Sequence record: PZ053912.1
Source of the DNA: a phage
Length of the DNA stretch: 64,000 bases
Reading direction: 5' to 3' (one strand)
A model generated the notes under the pieces. That model made no database searches. It saw nothing but the letters and a program-made list of their open reading frames with translations, and was not told the DNA's origin. Shown in pieces: positions 17,606 to 63,142 of this stretch (position 1 is the first letter of the stretch; every line of letters begins with the position of its first letter). A program made the position numbers and the translations under genes.

Positions 17606-18025
17606 TTATGCGAAAGCAGCTGGGCTATATTTTTTAATTTGGAATTCAGGAACTACCATGAACTGACCAGCGAAAACGATGTTATAAAGCTTAACACCAT
17701 CTTCTACCCAACGGTCGCTAATAAATCCGGCGATTTGCTTAGTTTTCCATGGCGTTCCATCAGTTGCCGCAGCAATAGTGAATTCATGGTCTTTTTCAAC
17801 AGAAACTGATCTGCATAGTCCCCATTTGAACGCTTTTTCTTCTGGCTCAATGAACTGGCTTGAGACGTAGCCAATATTACCATTAGCATCACGAACTTTA
17901 ACTTGGTTACGACCAAAAACCGGATCACTCACAGAAAGAACTTCAACCAGCTTCCCGGCAACTTTAGAGCGAGAAGCAACAGATACATATACGTAATCAC
18001 CTGTAGAGAGATTTACAATATTCAT
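17606..18025 (-). CDS. hypothetical protein, member of tandem paralog trio (139 aa)
   Basis: Shares C-terminal motif GFISD(R/Q)WVEDG.KLYNIVF.G.F.VV with the next two genes. Confidence 0.55.
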   Translation of the reverse strand: MNIVNLSTGDYVYVSVASRSKVAGKLVEVLSVSDPVFGRNQVKVRDANGNIGYVSSQFIEPEEKAFKWGLCRSVSVEKDHEFTIAAATDGTPWKTKQIAGFISDRWVEDGVKLYNIVFAGQFMVVPEFQIKKYSPAAFA

Positions 18026-18034
18026 AATAATTCC

Positions 18035-18490
18035 TTAAGCTTTACGAGGAGACACATAGCGAGTGATTTCAGATTCTTTAACAACTCGGAAGTCACCTAA
18101 GAATACGATATTGTATAACTTTTCACCATCTTCAACCCATTGGTCACTGATGAAGCCGCACATAATATCAGTTTTGTTTGGATAACCATATTCGTCGATG
18201 AAATCAAATTCTTTATCAGTCCGGAATTCAACGCCTTTGCAAAGGGCCCATTTGAACTGTACATTAGGTTCAGTAGAAGCAAAATGAGCGCTCACATGAG
18301 TTTCCAAGAATTTAGGACTTACGTAAGCGTACTGAGTTTCAGTTTTTCCAGAACTAGGAATGATTCGAACTTTAACTTCTTTAACACGTCCAGTACCATT
18401 AGTACGAAGTCCTACCACTTCAACTAGACGACCTGCAGCTTTAGAACGAGATGCAGACGATACACGCTTAATTTCACCAATAGTAATCAT
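18035..18490 (-). CDS. hypothetical protein, tandem paralog (151 aa from ATG 18490)
   Basis: As above; track start 18553 trimmed to internal ATG. Confidence 0.5.
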   Translation of the reverse strand: MITIGEIKRVSSASRSKAAGRLVEVVGLRTNGTGRVKEVKVRIIPSSGKTETQYAYVSPKFLETHVSAHFASTEPNVQFKWALCKGVEFRTDKEFDFIDEYGYPNKTDIMCGFISDQWVEDGEKLYNIVFLGDFRVVKESEITRYVSPRKA

Positions 18491-18520
18491 AATTTCTCTC
18501 TCTTTGTTTAAATTGAATTC

Positions 18521-18550
18521 ATTATACTCCATCCATCCTTGGATGTACAA
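18521..18550 (-). promoter_or_regulatory. early promoter (TTGTACA-N17-TATAAT), attatactccatccatccttgg cassette
   Basis: Read from sequence. Confidence 0.45.
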
Positions 18551-18552
18551 CA

Positions 18553-19047
18553 TTAATTAAGGATATTAACCACAGCACTACGTGGAACTACACTAAAATC
18601 ACCTGCATGAACAACGTTCAGAAGTTCAACACCGTCTTCAATCCACTGATCAGTTACCCATCCATTTACTGGACCTGCGAACGGACGTCGAATTGAAACA
18701 TATTTACACAACAAATCAGTAGGCTCAATAGGCTTAATCAGAGTACCGTACATACAAGCGATATCCATATCAATACAGATATCTTTAACGGGTTCTACTT
18801 CTTCAATCAACAGTTCAAAGTCGGTGCTTGGAAGGGCGGTAGTAGAAATTGTACCATATGAATTTTTAATTTCTAAGAATAACCAAGGGCCTTCAACTTG
18901 TTTGATGAAGTTAACAATAGTGAAACTATTACCTTGAGTGGCACCTAAAATTTCACAAAACTTTTCATAAGCTCGCACTGAAGCACCGTACCAGTTGATT
19001 TGTTTTTCATCTTTCAGGATGTAAGTAGCCGTTGTATTGATATTCAT
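18553..19047 (-). CDS. hypothetical protein, tandem paralog (164 aa from ATG 19047)
   Basis: C-terminal GWVTDQWIEDGVELLNVVHAGDFSVV; AGGAAA SD; track start 19089 is TTG. Confidence 0.5.
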   Translation of the reverse strand: MNINTTATYILKDEKQINWYGASVRAYEKFCEILGATQGNSFTIVNFIKQVEGPWLFLEIKNSYGTISTTALPSTDFELLIEEVEPVKDICIDMDIACMYGTLIKPIEPTDLLCKYVSIRRPFAGPVNGWVTDQWIEDGVELLNVVHAGDFSVVPRSAVVNILN

Positions 19048-19077
19048 AATGTTTTCCTGTTTGGTTAAGATAGAAAG

Positions 19078-19107
19078 ATTATACTCCAACCATCCTTGGT
19101 TGTAAAC
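19078..19107 (-). promoter_or_regulatory. early promoter (GTTTACA-N17-TATAAT) within 46-bp cassette repeated at 60172-60217
   Basis: Read from sequence. Confidence 0.5.
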
Positions 19108-57885: not shown

Positions 57886-58242
57886 TTAACCCCGGAGTTT
57901 ATTGAGCTCTTCATAATCAATCCAGGATTCTAGTCCGGATGGCAGGTCACATTCAATGTTCCACAGAAGCTCTTCAATGGCTTGCAGGCGATTATATTCT
58001 TCAACGGTAATGGTAACCATTGGTGCAACCGGTTCTGCCTTTTTAACCATCATATCGTTCATCAGGACGTAAAGGTCATCACGAACGACAGTGTCGTTCC
58101 AACCCCATGATTTGGCTTCGTAAGCTAATGATGAAGGGAGCACATTTAAAACTTCAATAATAGTTGGAGCATCAGGACCAAGTTCATTGGCACAAACTTC
58201 GTATACATCTTGGAAATCTTTAAGATTTAATGAATATGTCAT
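57886..58242 (-). CDS. hypothetical acidic protein (118 aa)
   Basis: ORF track. Confidence 0.5.
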   Translation of the reverse strand: MTYSLNLKDFQDVYEVCANELGPDAPTIIEVLNVLPSSLAYEAKSWGWNDTVVRDDLYVLMNDMMVKKAEPVAPMVTITVEEYNRLQAIEELLWNIECDLPSGLESWIDYEELNKLRG

Positions 58243-58502
58243 TTAAAATATTCTCGTAGTTGGTCAAAGCCACCGATCGAAGTTCCATCAGGAGCAAACA
58301 CTTGAGGCATAGTCAATCCAACTTGTGATTCACGTCCAAGCTTAACCAGAAGCTCAGCAATTTTCTCATCATCGAACACACCTTTTTCTGGCATAACATT
58401 AATGAATTCGAATGGTTGTTTCTTAACAGTCAGCAATCGTTTCGCATTATCGCAATAAATGCATTTATGAATAGTAGAGTCATACCCGTACACTTTAAAC
58501 AT
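58239..58502 (-). CDS. nrdC: thioredoxin/glutaredoxin NrdC
   Basis: Trimmed to ATG 58502 (MFKVYGYDSTIHKCIYCDNAKRLL.., 87 aa) with AAAGGA SD; matches T4 NrdC. Confidence 0.85.
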   Translation of the reverse strand: MFKVYGYDSTIHKCIYCDNAKRLLTVKKQPFEFINVMPEKGVFDDEKIAELLVKLGRESQVGLTMPQVFAPDGTSIGGFDQLREYFK

Positions 58503-58908
58503 TATTTTTCCTTTCATCGATTAAATATGCAATGCCAAATACAATACATATAATAAAACCTGTGATACAGATAGAAACCAACAACACTGTACCAAAGAAC
58601 CAAATCAAGTTATCTTTAGTAGTTTGTTTGATATCCATCTCACGAATTTCTATAGCTATCGTATCACCTTTATTCAGAAGCGTATAAAACGATGGCGATA
58701 CACGCCTGTCAAAAACTCGTCCTTGCTCATCTTTATAGACTGCAATAAATTCTAATTTAGAATATTTTCCTGTAGATTGGCCTGAGATTAATTCCACTAC
58801 CTCCACAGGAATTACTTTAGTTTCCATGTAAGTATTCTGGCTGTTCCAAATGAATGGAATAATAGCAAAAACTAAAGCTGCGATAAAACAACGAAGGCTA
58901 TATCTCAT
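58495..58908 (-). CDS. membrane protein (137 aa, N- and C-terminal TM segments)
   Basis: ORF track. Confidence 0.5.
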   Translation of the reverse strand: MRYSLRCFIAALVFAIIPFIWNSQNTYMETKVIPVEVVELISGQSTGKYSKLEFIAVYKDEQGRVFDRRVSPSFYTLLNKGDTIAIEIREMDIKQTTKDNLIWFFGTVLLVSICITGFIICIVFGIAYLIDERKNNV

Positions 58909-59213
58909 TATAATGTTCTCTCAAATTTGTGGAAGCATTTACGGCATTTCAATTTCAAGTTATCAGTGGTCCAGTTAACCAGTTGGACTTGGATAGTTCC
59001 ACATTCCGGGCACGGATGTTTTGCTGCCGATTTGGCAGCATTTTCACGTCGTTCAACCATTTTCATTATTTCGTTCCATGCCGGAGGAACGAACTCTTCT
59101 TCACCGTGGATTTTATCTCGCTGAACAAATTCAATCTTTGAACTATCGTCAATAAACTTAACCAAGCCGTGATTAGTGCTCATATCAATATCCTCTAAAA
59201 GACGTAGTTTCAT
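58908..59213 (-). CDS. zinc-ribbon protein (101 aa)
   Basis: CPECG..x..CRKC four-Cys ribbon. Confidence 0.5.
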   Translation of the reverse strand: MKLRLLEDIDMSTNHGLVKFIDDSSKIEFVQRDKIHGEEEFVPPAWNEIMKMVERRENAAKSAAKHPCPECGTIQVQLVNWTTDNLKLKCRKCFHKFERTL

Positions 59214-60157
59214 TATAAAACCTCAATGGCATTTCGTAAACCATCAGCTTTTGCATTCAGAGCTTTTAATGATTTAGTTTGTTCTGCAATCTGGGCTTCG
59301 ACTTCTTTCAGGCGAGATTTGAGATATTCGCGTTCTTCTCTTAAGTTATCAACTTTTTCTGCTTTAGGCTCTTTAATAGGCTTATACTCGTTATGGTTCT
59401 TCAACTTAATTTGAATGCGAGAACTGTATAACATTGAACCATTATCTTCGGTTTCATCATACATTTCTACCACGTCCATGATTCTTAACATCATGCGAAG
59501 TTTATAAGACAGCGAACGAATGGTTTTGTTGTGCTTATTAATTTCTTCGGCTTTCATGGTACCGAGATTACGTGAGTAGTAATAAGGAACCTGGATATCA
59601 ATTGATAATGATGCGGTACCATTACCTGTTGGTTTGAACACTGCAGTAACCCAATCTTTAGCATGAACTGTATTTGTACGATCATCGCCACCTGTGAATA
59701 ATTTACGTGAATGTTTAAAAAGCATATTCACTTGGTTATTGAATTCACAAGCAAATTTATCAGCAAATTTAGTTTCAGGAATGGTAGATAACCAATCAGC
59801 CAAATGAGTCTTTTTAACATCGTTAATAATAGTAAATTCAACTAAATCAGTTTTAGATGTCACAGATTTAATAAAGCTCGGCTTCATAAAGTTTTTAATG
59901 TTATCACGAGCTACAGTAGAAGATAATAAACGAGAACGTTTGAACCATTGAAGCAGTGTCCCTAATGAATGAGAATATGCATTCTGAGTATCTTTACAGA
60001 TATGATTTTCTTGGCCTGTGTATGTACCAAAATCGCGAAGAATACCACTTACTACAACTCGGTGTGGAACATCAAATCCTAATGAACCAGAAGCACGTTG
60101 GGCATGAACGTTAGCGATAAGACCTGCAAAATAATCAATGTAATGTGAACGTGTCAT
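59213..60157 (-). CDS. hypothetical protein with C-terminal coiled coil (314 aa)
   Basis: ORF track; heptad-like C-terminus EREYLKSRLKEVEAQIAEQTKSLKALNAKADGLRNAIEVL. Confidence 0.55.
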   Translation of the reverse strand: MTRSHYIDYFAGLIANVHAQRASGSLGFDVPHRVVVSGILRDFGTYTGQENHICKDTQNAYSHSLGTLLQWFKRSRLLSSTVARDNIKNFMKPSFIKSVTSKTDLVEFTIINDVKKTHLADWLSTIPETKFADKFACEFNNQVNMLFKHSRKLFTGGDDRTNTVHAKDWVTAVFKPTGNGTASLSIDIQVPYYYSRNLGTMKAEEINKHNKTIRSLSYKLRMMLRIMDVVEMYDETEDNGSMLYSSRIQIKLKNHNEYKPIKEPKAEKVDNLREEREYLKSRLKEVEAQIAEQTKSLKALNAKADGLRNAIEVL

Positions 60158-60185
60158 AATATTTTCCTCTCGTTAAGATAGAAAG

Positions 60186-60215
60186 ATTATACTCCAACCA
60201 TCCTTGGTTGTAAAC
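60186..60215 (-). promoter_or_regulatory. early promoter, copy of the 19064-19109 cassette
   Basis: Read from sequence. Confidence 0.5.
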
Positions 60216-60219
60216 TGAT

Positions 60220-61155
60220 TTATGATTTTAATGCATTCATTGCGTTAAAAAGTTTAGAGTACTGCAACTGGAGCTTGGTAACTACTTGTTGAGCATCACG
60301 AAGCTTAGCTTGTGCTTTGTCAAGTTCAACAGACAGTTGGTCCACAGTGGCTTTGATTTGATTATAATAGTAATCTTCGGCAGGAAGAAGACCGTTAGAG
60401 ATTTCCAGTTTAGTCGACGGTGAAGTGTATATAGATGGAGCAGTAAAATATGCACCTTGAACTTCAGCATTGCCAATTGGGGTTGTAGTAATTGACGCTT
60501 CGAACGTTGCATTTTCCTTTTTAAGATTTTTATAATATTCAGAGTCTTTGTGCCACCATGGCGCAGGAACCTTTTTACCAATAGATACACGAGCCTGGAT
60601 AGCGATATGGCCCTTATTCTTGATAGGGTTGATAATATTAAGCTCACGAGAATAAATTGCTTTAATCTGGTGAATATTATCACCTAACACTTCCAACGCT
60701 TGGTGGAATACACGAGCAACGTTATCATTCTTAGGTTTATACGTAAGAGTGAACTCGTTCTCACTGATAACCATGATTTCTAACTTATCGTAAGTATATT
60801 TCAAATGTTTCATGTTAATTGCTTGAGGACGAATACGAGAAGCAATGGCCATCAGATTGTTAAGGTTATTTCTGAACTGTTTAGCAAAATATTGTCCTTC
60901 ACCGCCAATACAAAAATTACGAAGTTTCTGTTTGGCTAATAAACGGCTGAACTCACCATTTTTAATGAACTCTTTAACGGGTGTGTTAGTAACGCATTCA
61001 AATTGAGTAAACTTACGAGAATTAATCCCATAATATGAACAGATTTCCTCAATCTCTTCAGGAGTCTTTACAGGCATACGGATAGGATTAGGTCCTGGGG
61101 TATATGCGTTCGAGGTAAATTCTTTGATAAGTTCTCTACGTGTAATAGAAGCCAT
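60220..61155 (-). CDS. hypothetical protein with C-terminal coiled coil (311 aa)
   Basis: ORF track. Confidence 0.55.
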   Translation of the reverse strand: MASITRRELIKEFTSNAYTPGPNPIRMPVKTPEEIEEICSYYGINSRKFTQFECVTNTPVKEFIKNGEFSRLLAKQKLRNFCIGGEGQYFAKQFRNNLNNLMAIASRIRPQAINMKHLKYTYDKLEIMVISENEFTLTYKPKNDNVARVFHQALEVLGDNIHQIKAIYSRELNIINPIKNKGHIAIQARVSIGKKVPAPWWHKDSEYYKNLKKENATFEASITTTPIGNAEVQGAYFTAPSIYTSPSTKLEISNGLLPAEDYYYNQIKATVDQLSVELDKAQAKLRDAQQVVTKLQLQYSKLFNAMNALKS

Positions 61156-61181
61156 TTTATATTCCTCATGTTGAAAAATTT

Positions 61182-61210
61182 ATTATACTCCAACCATCCT
61201 TGGTTGTACA
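61182..61210 (-). promoter_or_regulatory. early promoter, same cassette family (tattatactccaaccatccttggttgtaca)
   Basis: Read from sequence. Confidence 0.5.
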
Positions 61211-62206
61211 TCATTCCTTAAGAAGTTTTACTACCTGAATAAGATTAGCTCGTTCTGTTTTATTTTTACTGTTTAAGCCTGCTAATCGTGAGATTTCATC
61301 GTCAGTCTGTTGAATAGTTACATTAAGTTCGTTAATCAAAGCTTCAAAGTATTTGATTTGCTCAGCATGTTTTGATTCGAATTTCTGAACCGGAATAACG
61401 TCTTGGTTTAGTTCATCAATAAGGTCTTTAAGAGCATCTTCTTGGTTGATATCATATTCAACTTCTTTTATTTCTTCAACGAGCTCGTCTTTATATCTAA
61501 CGTCTTTTAGTCCTGGTGCTGGTCCTGAAATCTCTTCTTTAAGAGTACAAACATATCCAATACGGTATCCAATGCTGTCTCGCTTGATATCAACTTCGTC
61601 GATAAATCCACAATGTTTAAGTCCAGAGCCGATTAGGTCAAAATATCCTTGACGTCGTCCTTCAAACGTTACACGAACTACTAAGACAGTTTTACCTGCG
61701 ACCTTTTGAAGCTCACATTTATAAAAGTCTGTTGAACCTGAATAACGTGGATGAGTTTTAAAGTTCATCTGACGATCTAGGCCCATTTGTAAGCGTGCTG
61801 ATACGGCCATAAAACGTGTTTGATTCTCGTTAAGATGAGCAACAATCCATTTCAAAGGCATTTTACACTGTTCACGACCGAACAAATCAGTACGTCCTAG
61901 ATTACGCAGGATGTTGTTAGAGTTAATCATCGACAGAACGTTAAGTTTATTCAGCGCGCTGAAGATTCCATCGGCCATTGATTTTCCGTAACCTTTACAC
62001 GCTTTAATAAGCGCTCGTGGTAGGTTAGTATAGATTTCAGACGGCATATGAAAATCAAATTTACTAGTCAGTAATTGATGAACTTGGATAGCAATTTGCT
62101 CATAATTAAGTGCTCTGCGATCATTATGGTCTTTAAACCACACTTTAATCTGTGAAGCACATAAACCGTTAATTTCATGTTTTACCGCATCAGATGTAAT
62201 GCTCAT
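61211..62206 (-). CDS. hypothetical protein with C-terminal coiled coil (331 aa)
   Basis: ORF track. Confidence 0.55.
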   Translation of the reverse strand: MSITSDAVKHEINGLCASQIKVWFKDHNDRRALNYEQIAIQVHQLLTSKFDFHMPSEIYTNLPRALIKACKGYGKSMADGIFSALNKLNVLSMINSNNILRNLGRTDLFGREQCKMPLKWIVAHLNENQTRFMAVSARLQMGLDRQMNFKTHPRYSGSTDFYKCELQKVAGKTVLVVRVTFEGRRQGYFDLIGSGLKHCGFIDEVDIKRDSIGYRIGYVCTLKEEISGPAPGLKDVRYKDELVEEIKEVEYDINQEDALKDLIDELNQDVIPVQKFESKHAEQIKYFEALINELNVTIQQTDDEISRLAGLNSKNKTERANLIQVVKLLKE

Positions 62207-62268
62207 AACTATTTCCTCAGATTGAATTGGAACTCAAAACCATTATAACCCGTCCTTGGGTAAAGCGT

Positions 62269-62796
62269 TTATGCGTGAACCGTCTTTAAACGTTCTTCAA
62301 ATTTCCGAAGAGTACTAATACGTTCTGCTTTCTGTTTTGTATAGTTTGCAATACGTTCTGAAGTGAGAGCGTATCGTTCGTTTACTGTTTCTTTCATGAA
62401 GTCAGGGATTTCACGAGAAGCTTTAATTTCATCAAACTTATCGAGTACTGCCTGGTCTTCAGCAATTAAATTTTCGTACATCTCGATATCTTTCTTGATG
62501 AAGTCGATATCTTCCTGGGTTACTTTGGATAAACGAGATGCTTTATCCTTTTTGTACTGCTCGTTAGTTTCACGAGACCAGAATAATGTACGTTTTTTGT
62601 TAGTGTTTTTGTAGACTTCCACAATTCCAACTGAATCGATGATAACAATCCAATTCCAGCGAGATTTGAAAATCTGACCTCCGTCCACGGTAATCTCGTT
62701 ACCATAAGCAACGTCATTAAAGAACTTGCTTTGTGCTTCAGATTTAAATTTACCGTCGTTATAATTTACCAGGTTGAAAATATCTTTAGCGTTCAT
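62269..62796 (-). CDS. hypothetical protein (175 aa)
   Basis: ORF track. Confidence 0.5.
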   Translation of the reverse strand: MNAKDIFNLVNYNDGKFKSEAQSKFFNDVAYGNEITVDGGQIFKSRWNWIVIIDSVGIVEVYKNTNKKRTLFWSRETNEQYKKDKASRLSKVTQEDIDFIKKDIEMYENLIAEDQAVLDKFDEIKASREIPDFMKETVNERYALTSERIANYTKQKAERISTLRKFEERLKTVHA

Positions 62797-62823
62797 GTTT
62801 TACCTCCAGTAGTTGATAGGTCT

Positions 62824-62852
62824 ATAATAACATAAACATAGACCTTGTAAAC
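62824..62852 (-). promoter_or_regulatory. early promoter (GTTTAC-N17-TATTAT), ccagtagttgataggtctataataaca cassette
   Basis: Read from sequence; near-identical to 30237-30263. Confidence 0.5.
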
Positions 62853-62854
62853 AA

Positions 62855-63142
62855 CTAAAAGAAACTTTTTTCGGTATTTTTTCCACTGAACCAAACCGAC
62901 TTCGGGACTTTCTGTAATTTTTCGGATTTAAGTTTCTCTTCCTGTTCTTTCTTATATGCATCCTTGTCGTACTGGAACAACTCTAGGGCATTCTTTTGCA
63001 AACGATCTAAGGTAATTAAGGCTTTAGTTTTTCCTTTCAAGGAAGAGTCCTGGCGAACCTCCTCGCTATATTGCATCGTAGAACTAACCATACGATGAGC
63101 ATAGAGTTCTACTGCGGCTTTAATTTTTTGCATAAAATCCAT
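62855..63142 (-). CDS. hypothetical protein (95 aa)
   Basis: ORF track. Confidence 0.45.
   Translation of the reverse strand: MDFMQKIKAAVELYAHRMVSSTMQYSEEVRQDSSLKGKTKALITLDRLQKNALELFQYDKDAYKKEQEEKLKSEKLQKVPKSVWFSGKNTEKSFF

Follow-up and report, generated by a model that had tools for sequence, protein, structure and literature searches.

Three consecutive open reading frames (ORFs) on the minus strand of a 64,000-nucleotide stretch of phage DNA (sequence record PZ053912.1; the whole stretch is referred to below as the window) correspond to nrdC.3, nrdC.5 and nrdC.6 of the T-even phages. We lean slightly towards the interpretation that they form an array of early counter-defence, or host-range, paralogues carried in promoter cassettes that can be shuffled between phages. 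The genes themselves are already known, as long-annotated conserved hypotheticals of T-even phages that each have their own Pfam family; what is new here is the description of the array as one diverged family with a common architecture, and of its spacers as cassettes of the PeSL type (a sigma-70 promoter, a stem-loop and a Shine-Dalgarno sequence) with a covarying hairpin. An earlier note, made from the DNA sequence alone, had described three consecutive genes for proteins of about 310-330 amino acids, and this description was borne out. Its suggestion of a family of modular effectors or scaffold proteins of unknown function was supported in part: the family is not a novel one, with each gene present in 133-742 phage records, and the T4 NrdC.5 protein counteracts the Dsr1 defence.

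The ORFs lie at 59213-60157 (nrdC.3, 314 amino acids), 60220-61155 (nrdC.5, 311 amino acids) and 61211-62206 (nrdC.6, 331 amino acids), separated by spacers of 62 and 55 nucleotides, with another 62 nucleotides upstream of nrdC.6. The source of the window belongs to the genus Mosigvirus (RB69/JS09-like T-even phages). A 3.4-kb region around the array shows 99.4% identity to Escherichia phage DCP548 and approximately 97% identity to Mosigvirus JS09, and is matched by 518 phage records; in JS09, which was annotated after RB69, the three genes are named nrdC.3, nrdC.5 and nrdC.6. Together they make up the nrdC.3-nrdC.5-nrdC.6 segment of a hyperplastic early region bounded by nrdC and nrdC.8. NrdC.3 matches the profile phrog_1435 over its full length (residues 1-314, E-value 1e-103) and is 56.7% identical to its T4 counterpart; PF26897 is carried by 34 of 34 NrdC.3 homologues in a precomputed table. 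NrdC.6 matches phrog_2257 over residues 1-331 (E-value 2e-127), has homologues with PF26899 and is about 33% identical to T4 NrdC.6. By tblastn, nrdC.3 was found in 654 records, nrdC.6 in 742, and the window form of nrdC.5 in 133, all at least 83% identical and all Mosigvirus-like. Against three close relatives, the ratio of nonsynonymous to synonymous substitution rates (dN/dS) was 0.07-0.15 for nrdC.3, 0.14-0.26 for nrdC.5 and 0.05-0.08 for nrdC.6, showing that all three are constrained protein-coding genes under purifying selection.

A homologue of the T4 protein that counteracts Dsr1

The functional evidence comes through nrdC.5. Residues 15-310 of the window protein match positions 1-307 of the Pfam model PF23882 (DUF7235) with an E-value of 5.2e-112 and 374.7 bits (cut-off 30), and T4 NrdC.5 matches the same model with an E-value of 5.3e-126 and 420.6 bits. 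Both proteins are members of phrog_2351, and a MAFFT alignment of the two gave approximately 30% identity. The gene also occupies the expected place, between the nrdC.3/nrdC.4 genes and nrdC.6 within the nrdC-nrdC.8 early region.

In T4, a clone carrying deletions fails to infect the Escherichia coli strain ECOR17, and disruption of the host gene dsr1 restores infection (Srikant, Guegler, Laub, eLife 2022, PMC9391042). The dsr1 gene encodes a SIR2-domain defence and, when cloned, protects MG1655 from the deletion-carrying T4 clone, and expression of the T4 "early gene nrdC.5" from a plasmid restores plating on Dsr1 hosts (PMC9391042). A literature search on the function of nrdC.5 returned nothing besides this study, and no mechanism by which T4 NrdC.5 acts against Dsr1 is given there or in the later literature that we found. 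By analogy with its T4 homologue, the window's NrdC.5 would most likely neutralise a SIR2 NADase defence of the Dsr1 type. Nearby in the T6 genome, Gp49.2 inhibits the OLD defence (PMC13096335), and together with NrdC.5 this indicates that the T-even stretch holds several counter-defence genes.

The Mosigvirus form of NrdC.5 is a divergent branch of the family, since neither tblastn nor phmmer links it directly to T4 NrdC.5. A phmmer search of 1.8 billion representatives with NrdC.5 recovered the Mosigvirus copies and two repetitive or spurious matches, and nothing more.

A core shared beyond the range of BLASTP

The earlier note had stated that the N-terminal domains of the three proteins differ. 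This holds at the level of BLASTP, which gave no match in pairwise comparisons of NrdC.3, NrdC.5 and NrdC.6, but not at the level of profiles. In T4 there are four such genes in a row, nrdC.3 (308 amino acids), nrdC.4 (333), nrdC.5 (340) and nrdC.6 (275), and NrdC.3 and NrdC.4 share the profile family phrog_1435. We refer to four families below, and compared them with hhalign using family alignments to which T4, VR7 (Gaprivervirus) and ESCO10 (Dhakavirus) members had been added. NrdC.3 and NrdC.4 matched each other with a probability of 98% (E-value 3e-13), and NrdC.3 and NrdC.4 together matched NrdC.5 with probabilities of 86-93% (E-values 5e-6 to 3e-7). The latter similarity spans the non-coil core of the proteins, with residues 132-202 of NrdC.3 aligned to residues 87-165 of NrdC.5. 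NrdC.6 matched the other families at E-values of 7e-4 to 0.06 and probabilities of at most 26%. As controls, reversed templates gave E-values of 0.2-0.5, and none of 60 column-shuffled templates per pair reached the observed score, which lay 12-15 standard deviations (z) above the shuffles for NrdC.5 and 4.4-10.7 for NrdC.6.

All four families have two short motifs, in a constant order. The first, SRLL...I/L-K/R-N-F, covers residues 75-90 of NrdC.3 (SRLLSSTVARDNIKNF), 70-81 of NrdC.5 and 91-103 of NrdC.6. The second is a helix ending in ASR-L/I, at residues 135-153 of NrdC.3 (FACEFNNQVNMLFKHSRKL), 90-108 of NrdC.5 and 120-139 of NrdC.6. AlphaFold2 was run on NrdC.5 with an 18-sequence alignment and on NrdC.3 with 34 sequences to which the NrdC.5 rows were added. 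The resulting models were of low confidence because the alignments were shallow, with a mean predicted local distance difference test score (pLDDT) of 39 for NrdC.5 and 47 for NrdC.3, so that only the C-terminal helices are usable. Both models nevertheless place the same order of elements after motif 2, namely three strands, a long helix, two strands, a linker and a terminal helix. Further evidence comes from phrog_26858, a family of 337-residue proteins whose core matches NrdC.4 (E-value 2e-4) and whose C-terminal helix matches NrdC.5 (E-value 1.9e-8 for the VR7 protein and 1.1e-4 for the window protein). This family would represent an intermediate between the NrdC.4 and NrdC.5 families, or else a natural chimera of the two.

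Could the three proteins instead be unrelated ORFans that share a generic coiled-coil tail, with a similarity that is only compositional and with unrelated functions? The lack of BLASTP matches and the low probabilities of the NrdC.6 comparisons fit such an account, as do two observations on the tails: hidden Markov models (HMMs) of the C-terminal helices do not cross-detect the families, and the weak Pfam and PHROG matches of the tails are to coiled-coil families of a generic kind, such as Mer2, CENP-F and tape-measure proteins. However, the signal between NrdC.3/NrdC.4 and NrdC.5 lies in the core and outside the coil, far above its shuffled controls, and is accompanied by two ordered motifs in four families, by a family that bridges NrdC.4 and NrdC.5, and by the same order of secondary-structure elements in two models. 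We consider the ORFan account unlikely. NrdC.3/NrdC.4 and NrdC.5 are very probably paralogues, and the balance tips, if narrowly, towards including NrdC.6 among them. The common layout is most likely a variable N-terminus, motif 1, motif 2, a small beta-sheet with a helix, a variable linker and an amphipathic C-terminal helix of 40-55 residues. With a core shared by NrdC.3/NrdC.4 and NrdC.5, and probably by NrdC.6, the proteins should not be pictured as unlike heads joined to one kind of coil.

Heptad-rich C-termini

The C-terminal coiled coils described in the earlier note found support in all three proteins. We scored 28-residue windows with a home-made heptad measure (hydrophobic residues at positions a and d, polar residues elsewhere, no proline or glycine) against 200 shuffles of each protein. 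The maximum fell at residues 277-304 of NrdC.3 (z 3.9, 0 of 200 shuffles), 265-292 of NrdC.5 (z 4.7, 0 of 200 shuffles) and 281-308 of NrdC.6 (z 2.7, 2 of 200 shuffles). The neighbouring proteins NrdD, gp49, NrdC.2, NrdC.7 and NrdC.9, used as controls (n=5), scored at chance.

In the models, NrdC.3 ends in a long amphipathic helix at residues 273-313 (59219-59341, minus strand; pLDDT 81-90), and NrdC.5 in a long helix at residues 258-310 (60226-60384, minus strand; pLDDT 58-74), the latter also matched by phrog_26858. The heptad-rich segment of NrdC.6 comprises residues 281-330 (61217-61366, minus strand); the sequence is free of proline and glycine from 273 to 309, is interrupted by G310, a possible kink, and continues through 311-330. 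This segment is conserved in the NrdC.6 proteins of Tequatrovirus, Gaprivervirus and Dhakavirus, and across four T-even genera the core is conserved together with a C-terminal ...RLxGLxSKxKxERxxLIxxVxLLK. The C-termini of the NrdC.3, NrdC.4, NrdC.5 and NrdC.6 families follow a similar L-x-x-A-[ILM]-x-[ALV]-L-K pattern. As the tail HMMs do not detect one another's families, we do not claim homology of the tails, and regard the shared ending as a visual similarity only. The modelled helices may self-associate. With heptad and helix support in the tails and cores linked by profiles, the proteins show both the coiled-coil propensity and the relatedness whose absence would have spoken against the earlier note.

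The product of nrdC.8 (175 amino acids, 62269-62796, minus strand) has a weak heptad-like C-terminal segment at residues 146-173 (z 2.0, 8 of 200 shuffles); no relation of NrdC.8 to NrdC.3, NrdC.5 or NrdC.6 was detected.

Repeated early-promoter cassettes in the spacers

Near-identical sigma-70 early-promoter elements, T[T/G]TACAACCAAGGATGGTTGGAGTATAAT, lie directly upstream of nrdC.3 (60186-60214) and nrdC.5 (61182-61210). They match the promoter consensus at 11 of 12 and 10 of 12 positions, respectively, each with a 17-nucleotide spacer and a perfect TATAAT. The cassette before nrdC.3 (60158-60219, minus strand) has its -35 box, TTTACA, at 60209-60214, the hairpin CAACCA-AGGA-TGGTTG at 60195-60210 and its -10 box at 60186-60191, followed by the Shine-Dalgarno sequence GAGAGGAA. 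In the cassette before nrdC.5 (61156-61210, minus strand), the -35 box, TGTACA at 61205-61210, begins immediately after the nrdC.6 stop codon, and is followed by the hairpin at 61191-61206, the -10 box at 61182-61187 and the Shine-Dalgarno sequence GAGGAA. The cassette before nrdC.6 (62207-62268, minus strand) is diverged, with TTTACC at 62259-62264, TATAAT at 62242-62247 and only 11 nucleotides between them, a short hairpin ACCC..GGGT with the loop AAGGAC, and the Shine-Dalgarno sequence GAGGAA. It is homologous to a T4 cassette, TTATACCA-AGGA-TGGTATAA, downstream of nrdC.8, and its non-canonical TTTACC-N11-TATAAT was not called by our consensus promoter scan. A promoter cassette of its own for each gene, as the earlier note proposed, can thus be upheld for nrdC.3 and nrdC.5, and only loosely for nrdC.6, which has a shortened and diverged copy.

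Overall the promoter scan found 26 sites against 27.1 in shuffled sequence, and the promoter evidence therefore rests on the repeated, conserved cassette and not on the scan. The 29-nucleotide element is present in four copies in the window (allowing at most 3 mismatches) where none is expected, and in 489 places in 210 records across the phage collection, typically three per Mosigvirus genome. Its spacer hairpin keeps an AGGA loop and its pairing while the stem sequence varies between copies and phages: CAACCA/TGGTTG and, at 18530, CATCCA/TGGATG (a compensatory change) in the window, AGCCA/TGGCT and CCACA/TGTGG in T4, and CTTCCA/TGGAGG in VR7. In eight copies, which had been picked by a hairpin search, 93.8% of cells were paired and four of six pairs had changed on both sides (0 of 500 shuffles), against 19-44% pairing in slid-register controls. 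MotA-type middle promoters were absent from the intergenic spacers of the array.

Elements with this architecture have been described in T4-type phages as PeSLs (promoter-early stem-loops), which combine a sigma-70 early promoter with a stem-loop that mostly lies between the -35 and -10 boxes, end in a Shine-Dalgarno sequence and start codon, and are repeated in hyperplastic regions (PMC2839356, PMC4122927). Their T-even consensus is TTTACW-N17-TAYWAT (Arbiol et al. 2010, PMC2839356; Comeau et al. 2014, PMC4122927). Promoter activity, terminator or attenuator activity and mini-circle recombination have been shown for the PeSLs of RB49 and phi1 only (PMC2839356). Judged by sequence, the repeated cassettes appear to be PeSL-type elements, with an architecture that matches the published definition (PMC2839356).

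The other two copies of the cassette in the window, at 18521-18549 and 19078-19106 (minus strand), lie beside dexA and precede tandem ORFs of about 140-178 amino acids. These ORFs (17606-19106, minus strand) are paralogues of each other and share the C-terminal motif D-Q/R-W-V/I-EDG-x-K/E-L-x-N-V/I-V. The spacer upstream of nrdC.8 (62797-62857, minus strand) contains GTTTAC-N17-TATTAT and a 9-bp stem, AGGTCTAT.../...ATAGACCT, that overlaps the -10 box, which is the other PeSL layout of the literature; its minimum free energy of -13.8 kcal/mol is equalled or bettered by 11 of 200 shuffles. Directly 3' of the cassette hairpin, at 60192-60195 and 61188-61191 (minus strand), is a GGAG sequence (TGGTTGGAGTATAAT). 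The T4 endoribonuclease RegB cleaves at this motif, and read-through transcripts might be cut there.

Gene content differs between genera

The order of the genes is nrdC.3-nrdC.4-nrdC.5-nrdC.6 in T4, nrdC.3-nrdC.5-nrdC.6 in the window phage and RB69-like phages, and nrdC.4-nrdC.5-(ORF of about 70 amino acids)-nrdC.6 in VR7 and ESCO10, from which nrdC.3 is absent. The homologue of nrdC.7 (58495-58908, minus strand), whose product is predicted to be a membrane protein, is placed between nrdC and nrdC.2 in the window and in JS09/RB69; in T4, nrdC.7 is found between nrdC.6 and nrdC.8, so that the array has been rearranged internally. The first 35 or so residues of NrdC.3 exist in two allelic versions among close relatives, indicating mosaic recombination, and the linker preceding the NrdC.5 helix is hypervariable, with insertions and deletions. 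Variable gene content, alternative NrdC.3 N-termini and linker indels are what PeSL-mediated shuffling predicts.

In phage ACG-C40 (locus L003, 4805-5213), a 71-residue N-terminal remnant of nrdC.5 runs directly into roughly the final 70 codons of nrdC.3. The natural deletion that joined nrdC.5, at its 5' end, with the 3' end of nrdC.3 took out the whole of nrdC.4 and the greater part of both nrdC.5 and nrdC.3.

These differences bear on a further alternative, in which the proteins are not independent effectors and instead assemble through their C-terminal helices into a hetero-oligomeric early complex, or scaffold. The genes are adjacent and have promoter cassettes in common, and are therefore presumably co-expressed, and all of the proteins have the similar C-terminal pattern described above. 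However, membership of such a complex would vary by genus (no NrdC.3 in VR7 and ESCO10, no NrdC.4 in the window, and the deletion in ACG-C40), and the T4 reference NrdC.6 has no helix. Moreover, plasmid-borne T4 nrdC.5 alone restores plating on Dsr1+ cells, with other phage genes still present (PMC9391042). We regard a scaffold as improbable, a little more so than unrelated ORFans. The earlier note had offered modular effectors or scaffold proteins as possibilities; the first fits both the membership of NrdC.5 in the DUF7235 family of the anti-Dsr1 protein and the placement of cassettes in a variable region, and the second found no support.

Gene names and neighbours

In JS09, nrdC.2 and nrdC.7 lie to one side of the three genes, and nrdC.8, nrdC.9 and nrdC.10 to the other. 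The true NrdC of the window is a 92-residue ORF at 58239-58517. In many deposited genomes the homologues of nrdC.2-nrdC.8 are labelled "thioredoxin", although none has a thioredoxin domain, and the label seems to have been propagated from the gene name. Product names in the ESCO10 record (OM386655.1) are out of register with the genes, with "endonuclease II" attached to the homologue of nrdC.5, for example, and "aerobic NDP reductase small subunit" to that of nrdC.4.

A role as auxiliary proteins of nucleotide metabolism or redox chemistry is what the names and labels would imply, and the genes do adjoin nrdD, nrdC and, in T4, the nrd/tk region. We consider this role very improbable. Searches of Pfam, NCBIfam and PDB revealed no thioredoxin, glutaredoxin or any enzyme domain, the "thioredoxin" label carried by many records derives from the gene name and not from a domain, and the genes are dispensable and variably present. 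In particular, none of the three proteins had a match in Pfam or NCBIfam to a thioredoxin or glutaredoxin fold domain with a CxxC motif. More broadly, NCBIfam and PADLOC searches of the three proteins gave no match, PDB sequence and profile searches gave nothing below an E-value of 0.2, word-indexed homologue searches returned close T-even relatives and nothing else, and a search of IMG/VR for related loci returned only four.

Weighing the interpretation

Under the explanation we propose, each gene would be a self-contained module consisting of a PeSL-type cassette (sigma-70 promoter, spacer hairpin and Shine-Dalgarno sequence) and one ORF. Host RNA polymerase would transcribe the cassettes immediately after infection, as suggested by the promoter consensus and by the description of T4 nrdC.5 as an early gene. 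The products would be old and strongly diverged paralogues of one family that includes T4 NrdC.4, and would serve in counter-defence, as host-range factors, by binding immunity proteins of the host. Family membership suggests that NrdC.5 would block a Dsr1-type NADase; NrdC.3 and NrdC.6 might, speculatively, hit other host targets. The C-terminal helix would supply self-association, and the repeated cassettes would provide homology for recombination, by which members could be gained, lost and swapped between phages. This recombination step draws on the comparative evidence given here and on the experiments with the PeSLs of RB49 and phi1.

Several observations weigh against this explanation. 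The direct searches that fail to connect the window's NrdC.5 with T4 NrdC.5, together with the roughly 30% identity between them, mean that their target specificity may differ. The link of NrdC.6 to the other families stays at the low hhalign probabilities given above, and a literature search returned nothing on nrdC.3 or nrdC.6. A Foldseek search of BFVD with the low-confidence NrdC.3 model gave a best E-value of 5e-3 with a template-modelling (TM) score of at most 0.23, which is meaningless, and with the low pLDDT of both models and no Foldseek or PDB match the core has no assignable fold. HMMs built from the C-terminal 32 residues and searched against the six-frame ORFs of the window recovered their own family only. 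The reference nrdC.6 of T4 has lost its helix through a 1-nucleotide deletion, so that the phage may be able to do without it, at any rate under laboratory conditions. Lastly, the cassette hairpins are no more stable than shuffled sequences in RNA folding (z -1.7 to +1.1), and the copies used for covariation were chosen for having a hairpin.

With these points taken into account, we still give a slight preference to an array of early counter-defence paralogues in shufflable cassettes. In its fullest form, this interpretation would extend to a single NrdC.3-NrdC.6 counter-defence superfamily, built of a recognition core and an oligomerising helix, in which paralogues are tuned to different immune proteins, Dsr1 is the first target to be found and PeSLs form the recombination joints; this extension is doubtful, and we put it forward tentatively.

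T-even phages are the main model system and common therapy candidates, and yet most of their early accessory genes have no assigned function. If nrdC.3 and nrdC.6 do belong to the family of the anti-Dsr1 gene, a testable hypothesis becomes available for roughly 1 kb per gene of conserved sequence now labelled hypothetical, present in hundreds of phage genomes, with pointers to new inhibitors of bacterial immunity and new host-range determinants, and the promoter cassettes would explain how such genes move as units. The widespread GenBank label "thioredoxin" on nrdC.x genes is wrong and should not spread further.

Comparison with known systems

With T4 NrdC.5, the window protein shares the full-length Pfam model, the position in the array, the motifs and the control by an early promoter, as well as a like ending of the C-terminal helix (KLFNAMNALKS against KLNNALNALN). 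It differs in being 29 residues shorter, in its linker and in most of its residues, as the low identity shows. T4 NrdC.3 is closer to its counterpart in the window, at 57% identity and with the same C-terminal helix. Unlike T4, the window phage has no NrdC.4, the NrdC.3 paralogue with the strongest hhalign match.

An additional insert of some 35 residues (roughly 233-270), acidic and rich in helix, sets the NrdC.6 of Mosigvirus apart from other T-even NrdC.6 proteins. In T4, the reference protein (275 amino acids) is frameshifted and lacks the tail. In the T4 genome (NC_000866.4; locus L002, 6497-7394), nrdC.6 reads GAGCTG-ATATTT, against GAGCTGAATATTT in ACG-C40 (locus L003, 3909-4796), a deletion of 1 nucleotide, and a different frame still codes for the missing tail (IFRLSGLSSKAKSEREKLIKIVDLLKS) as far as the nrdC.5 start. 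In other Tequatroviruses NrdC.6 is intact, at 295 amino acids, and the T4 deletion is attributable to mutation of a laboratory strain or else to an error in old sequencing.

Like published PeSLs, the cassettes of the array have a stem-loop between the promoter boxes, occur in several copies per genome and flank variable ORFs. Unlike them, they have short stems (5-8 bp, with an AGGA loop) of modest stability, and the nrdC.6 copy has an 11-nucleotide spacer.

As a phage protein that would block a SIR2-domain defence, NrdC.5 can be compared with DSAD1 of phage SPbeta, which is reportedly a protein inhibitor of the SIR2 defence DSR2. The comparison is one of functional analogy only, that is, of phage proteins acting against NAD+-depleting SIR2-domain defences; DSAD1 comes from another phage group and has another target.

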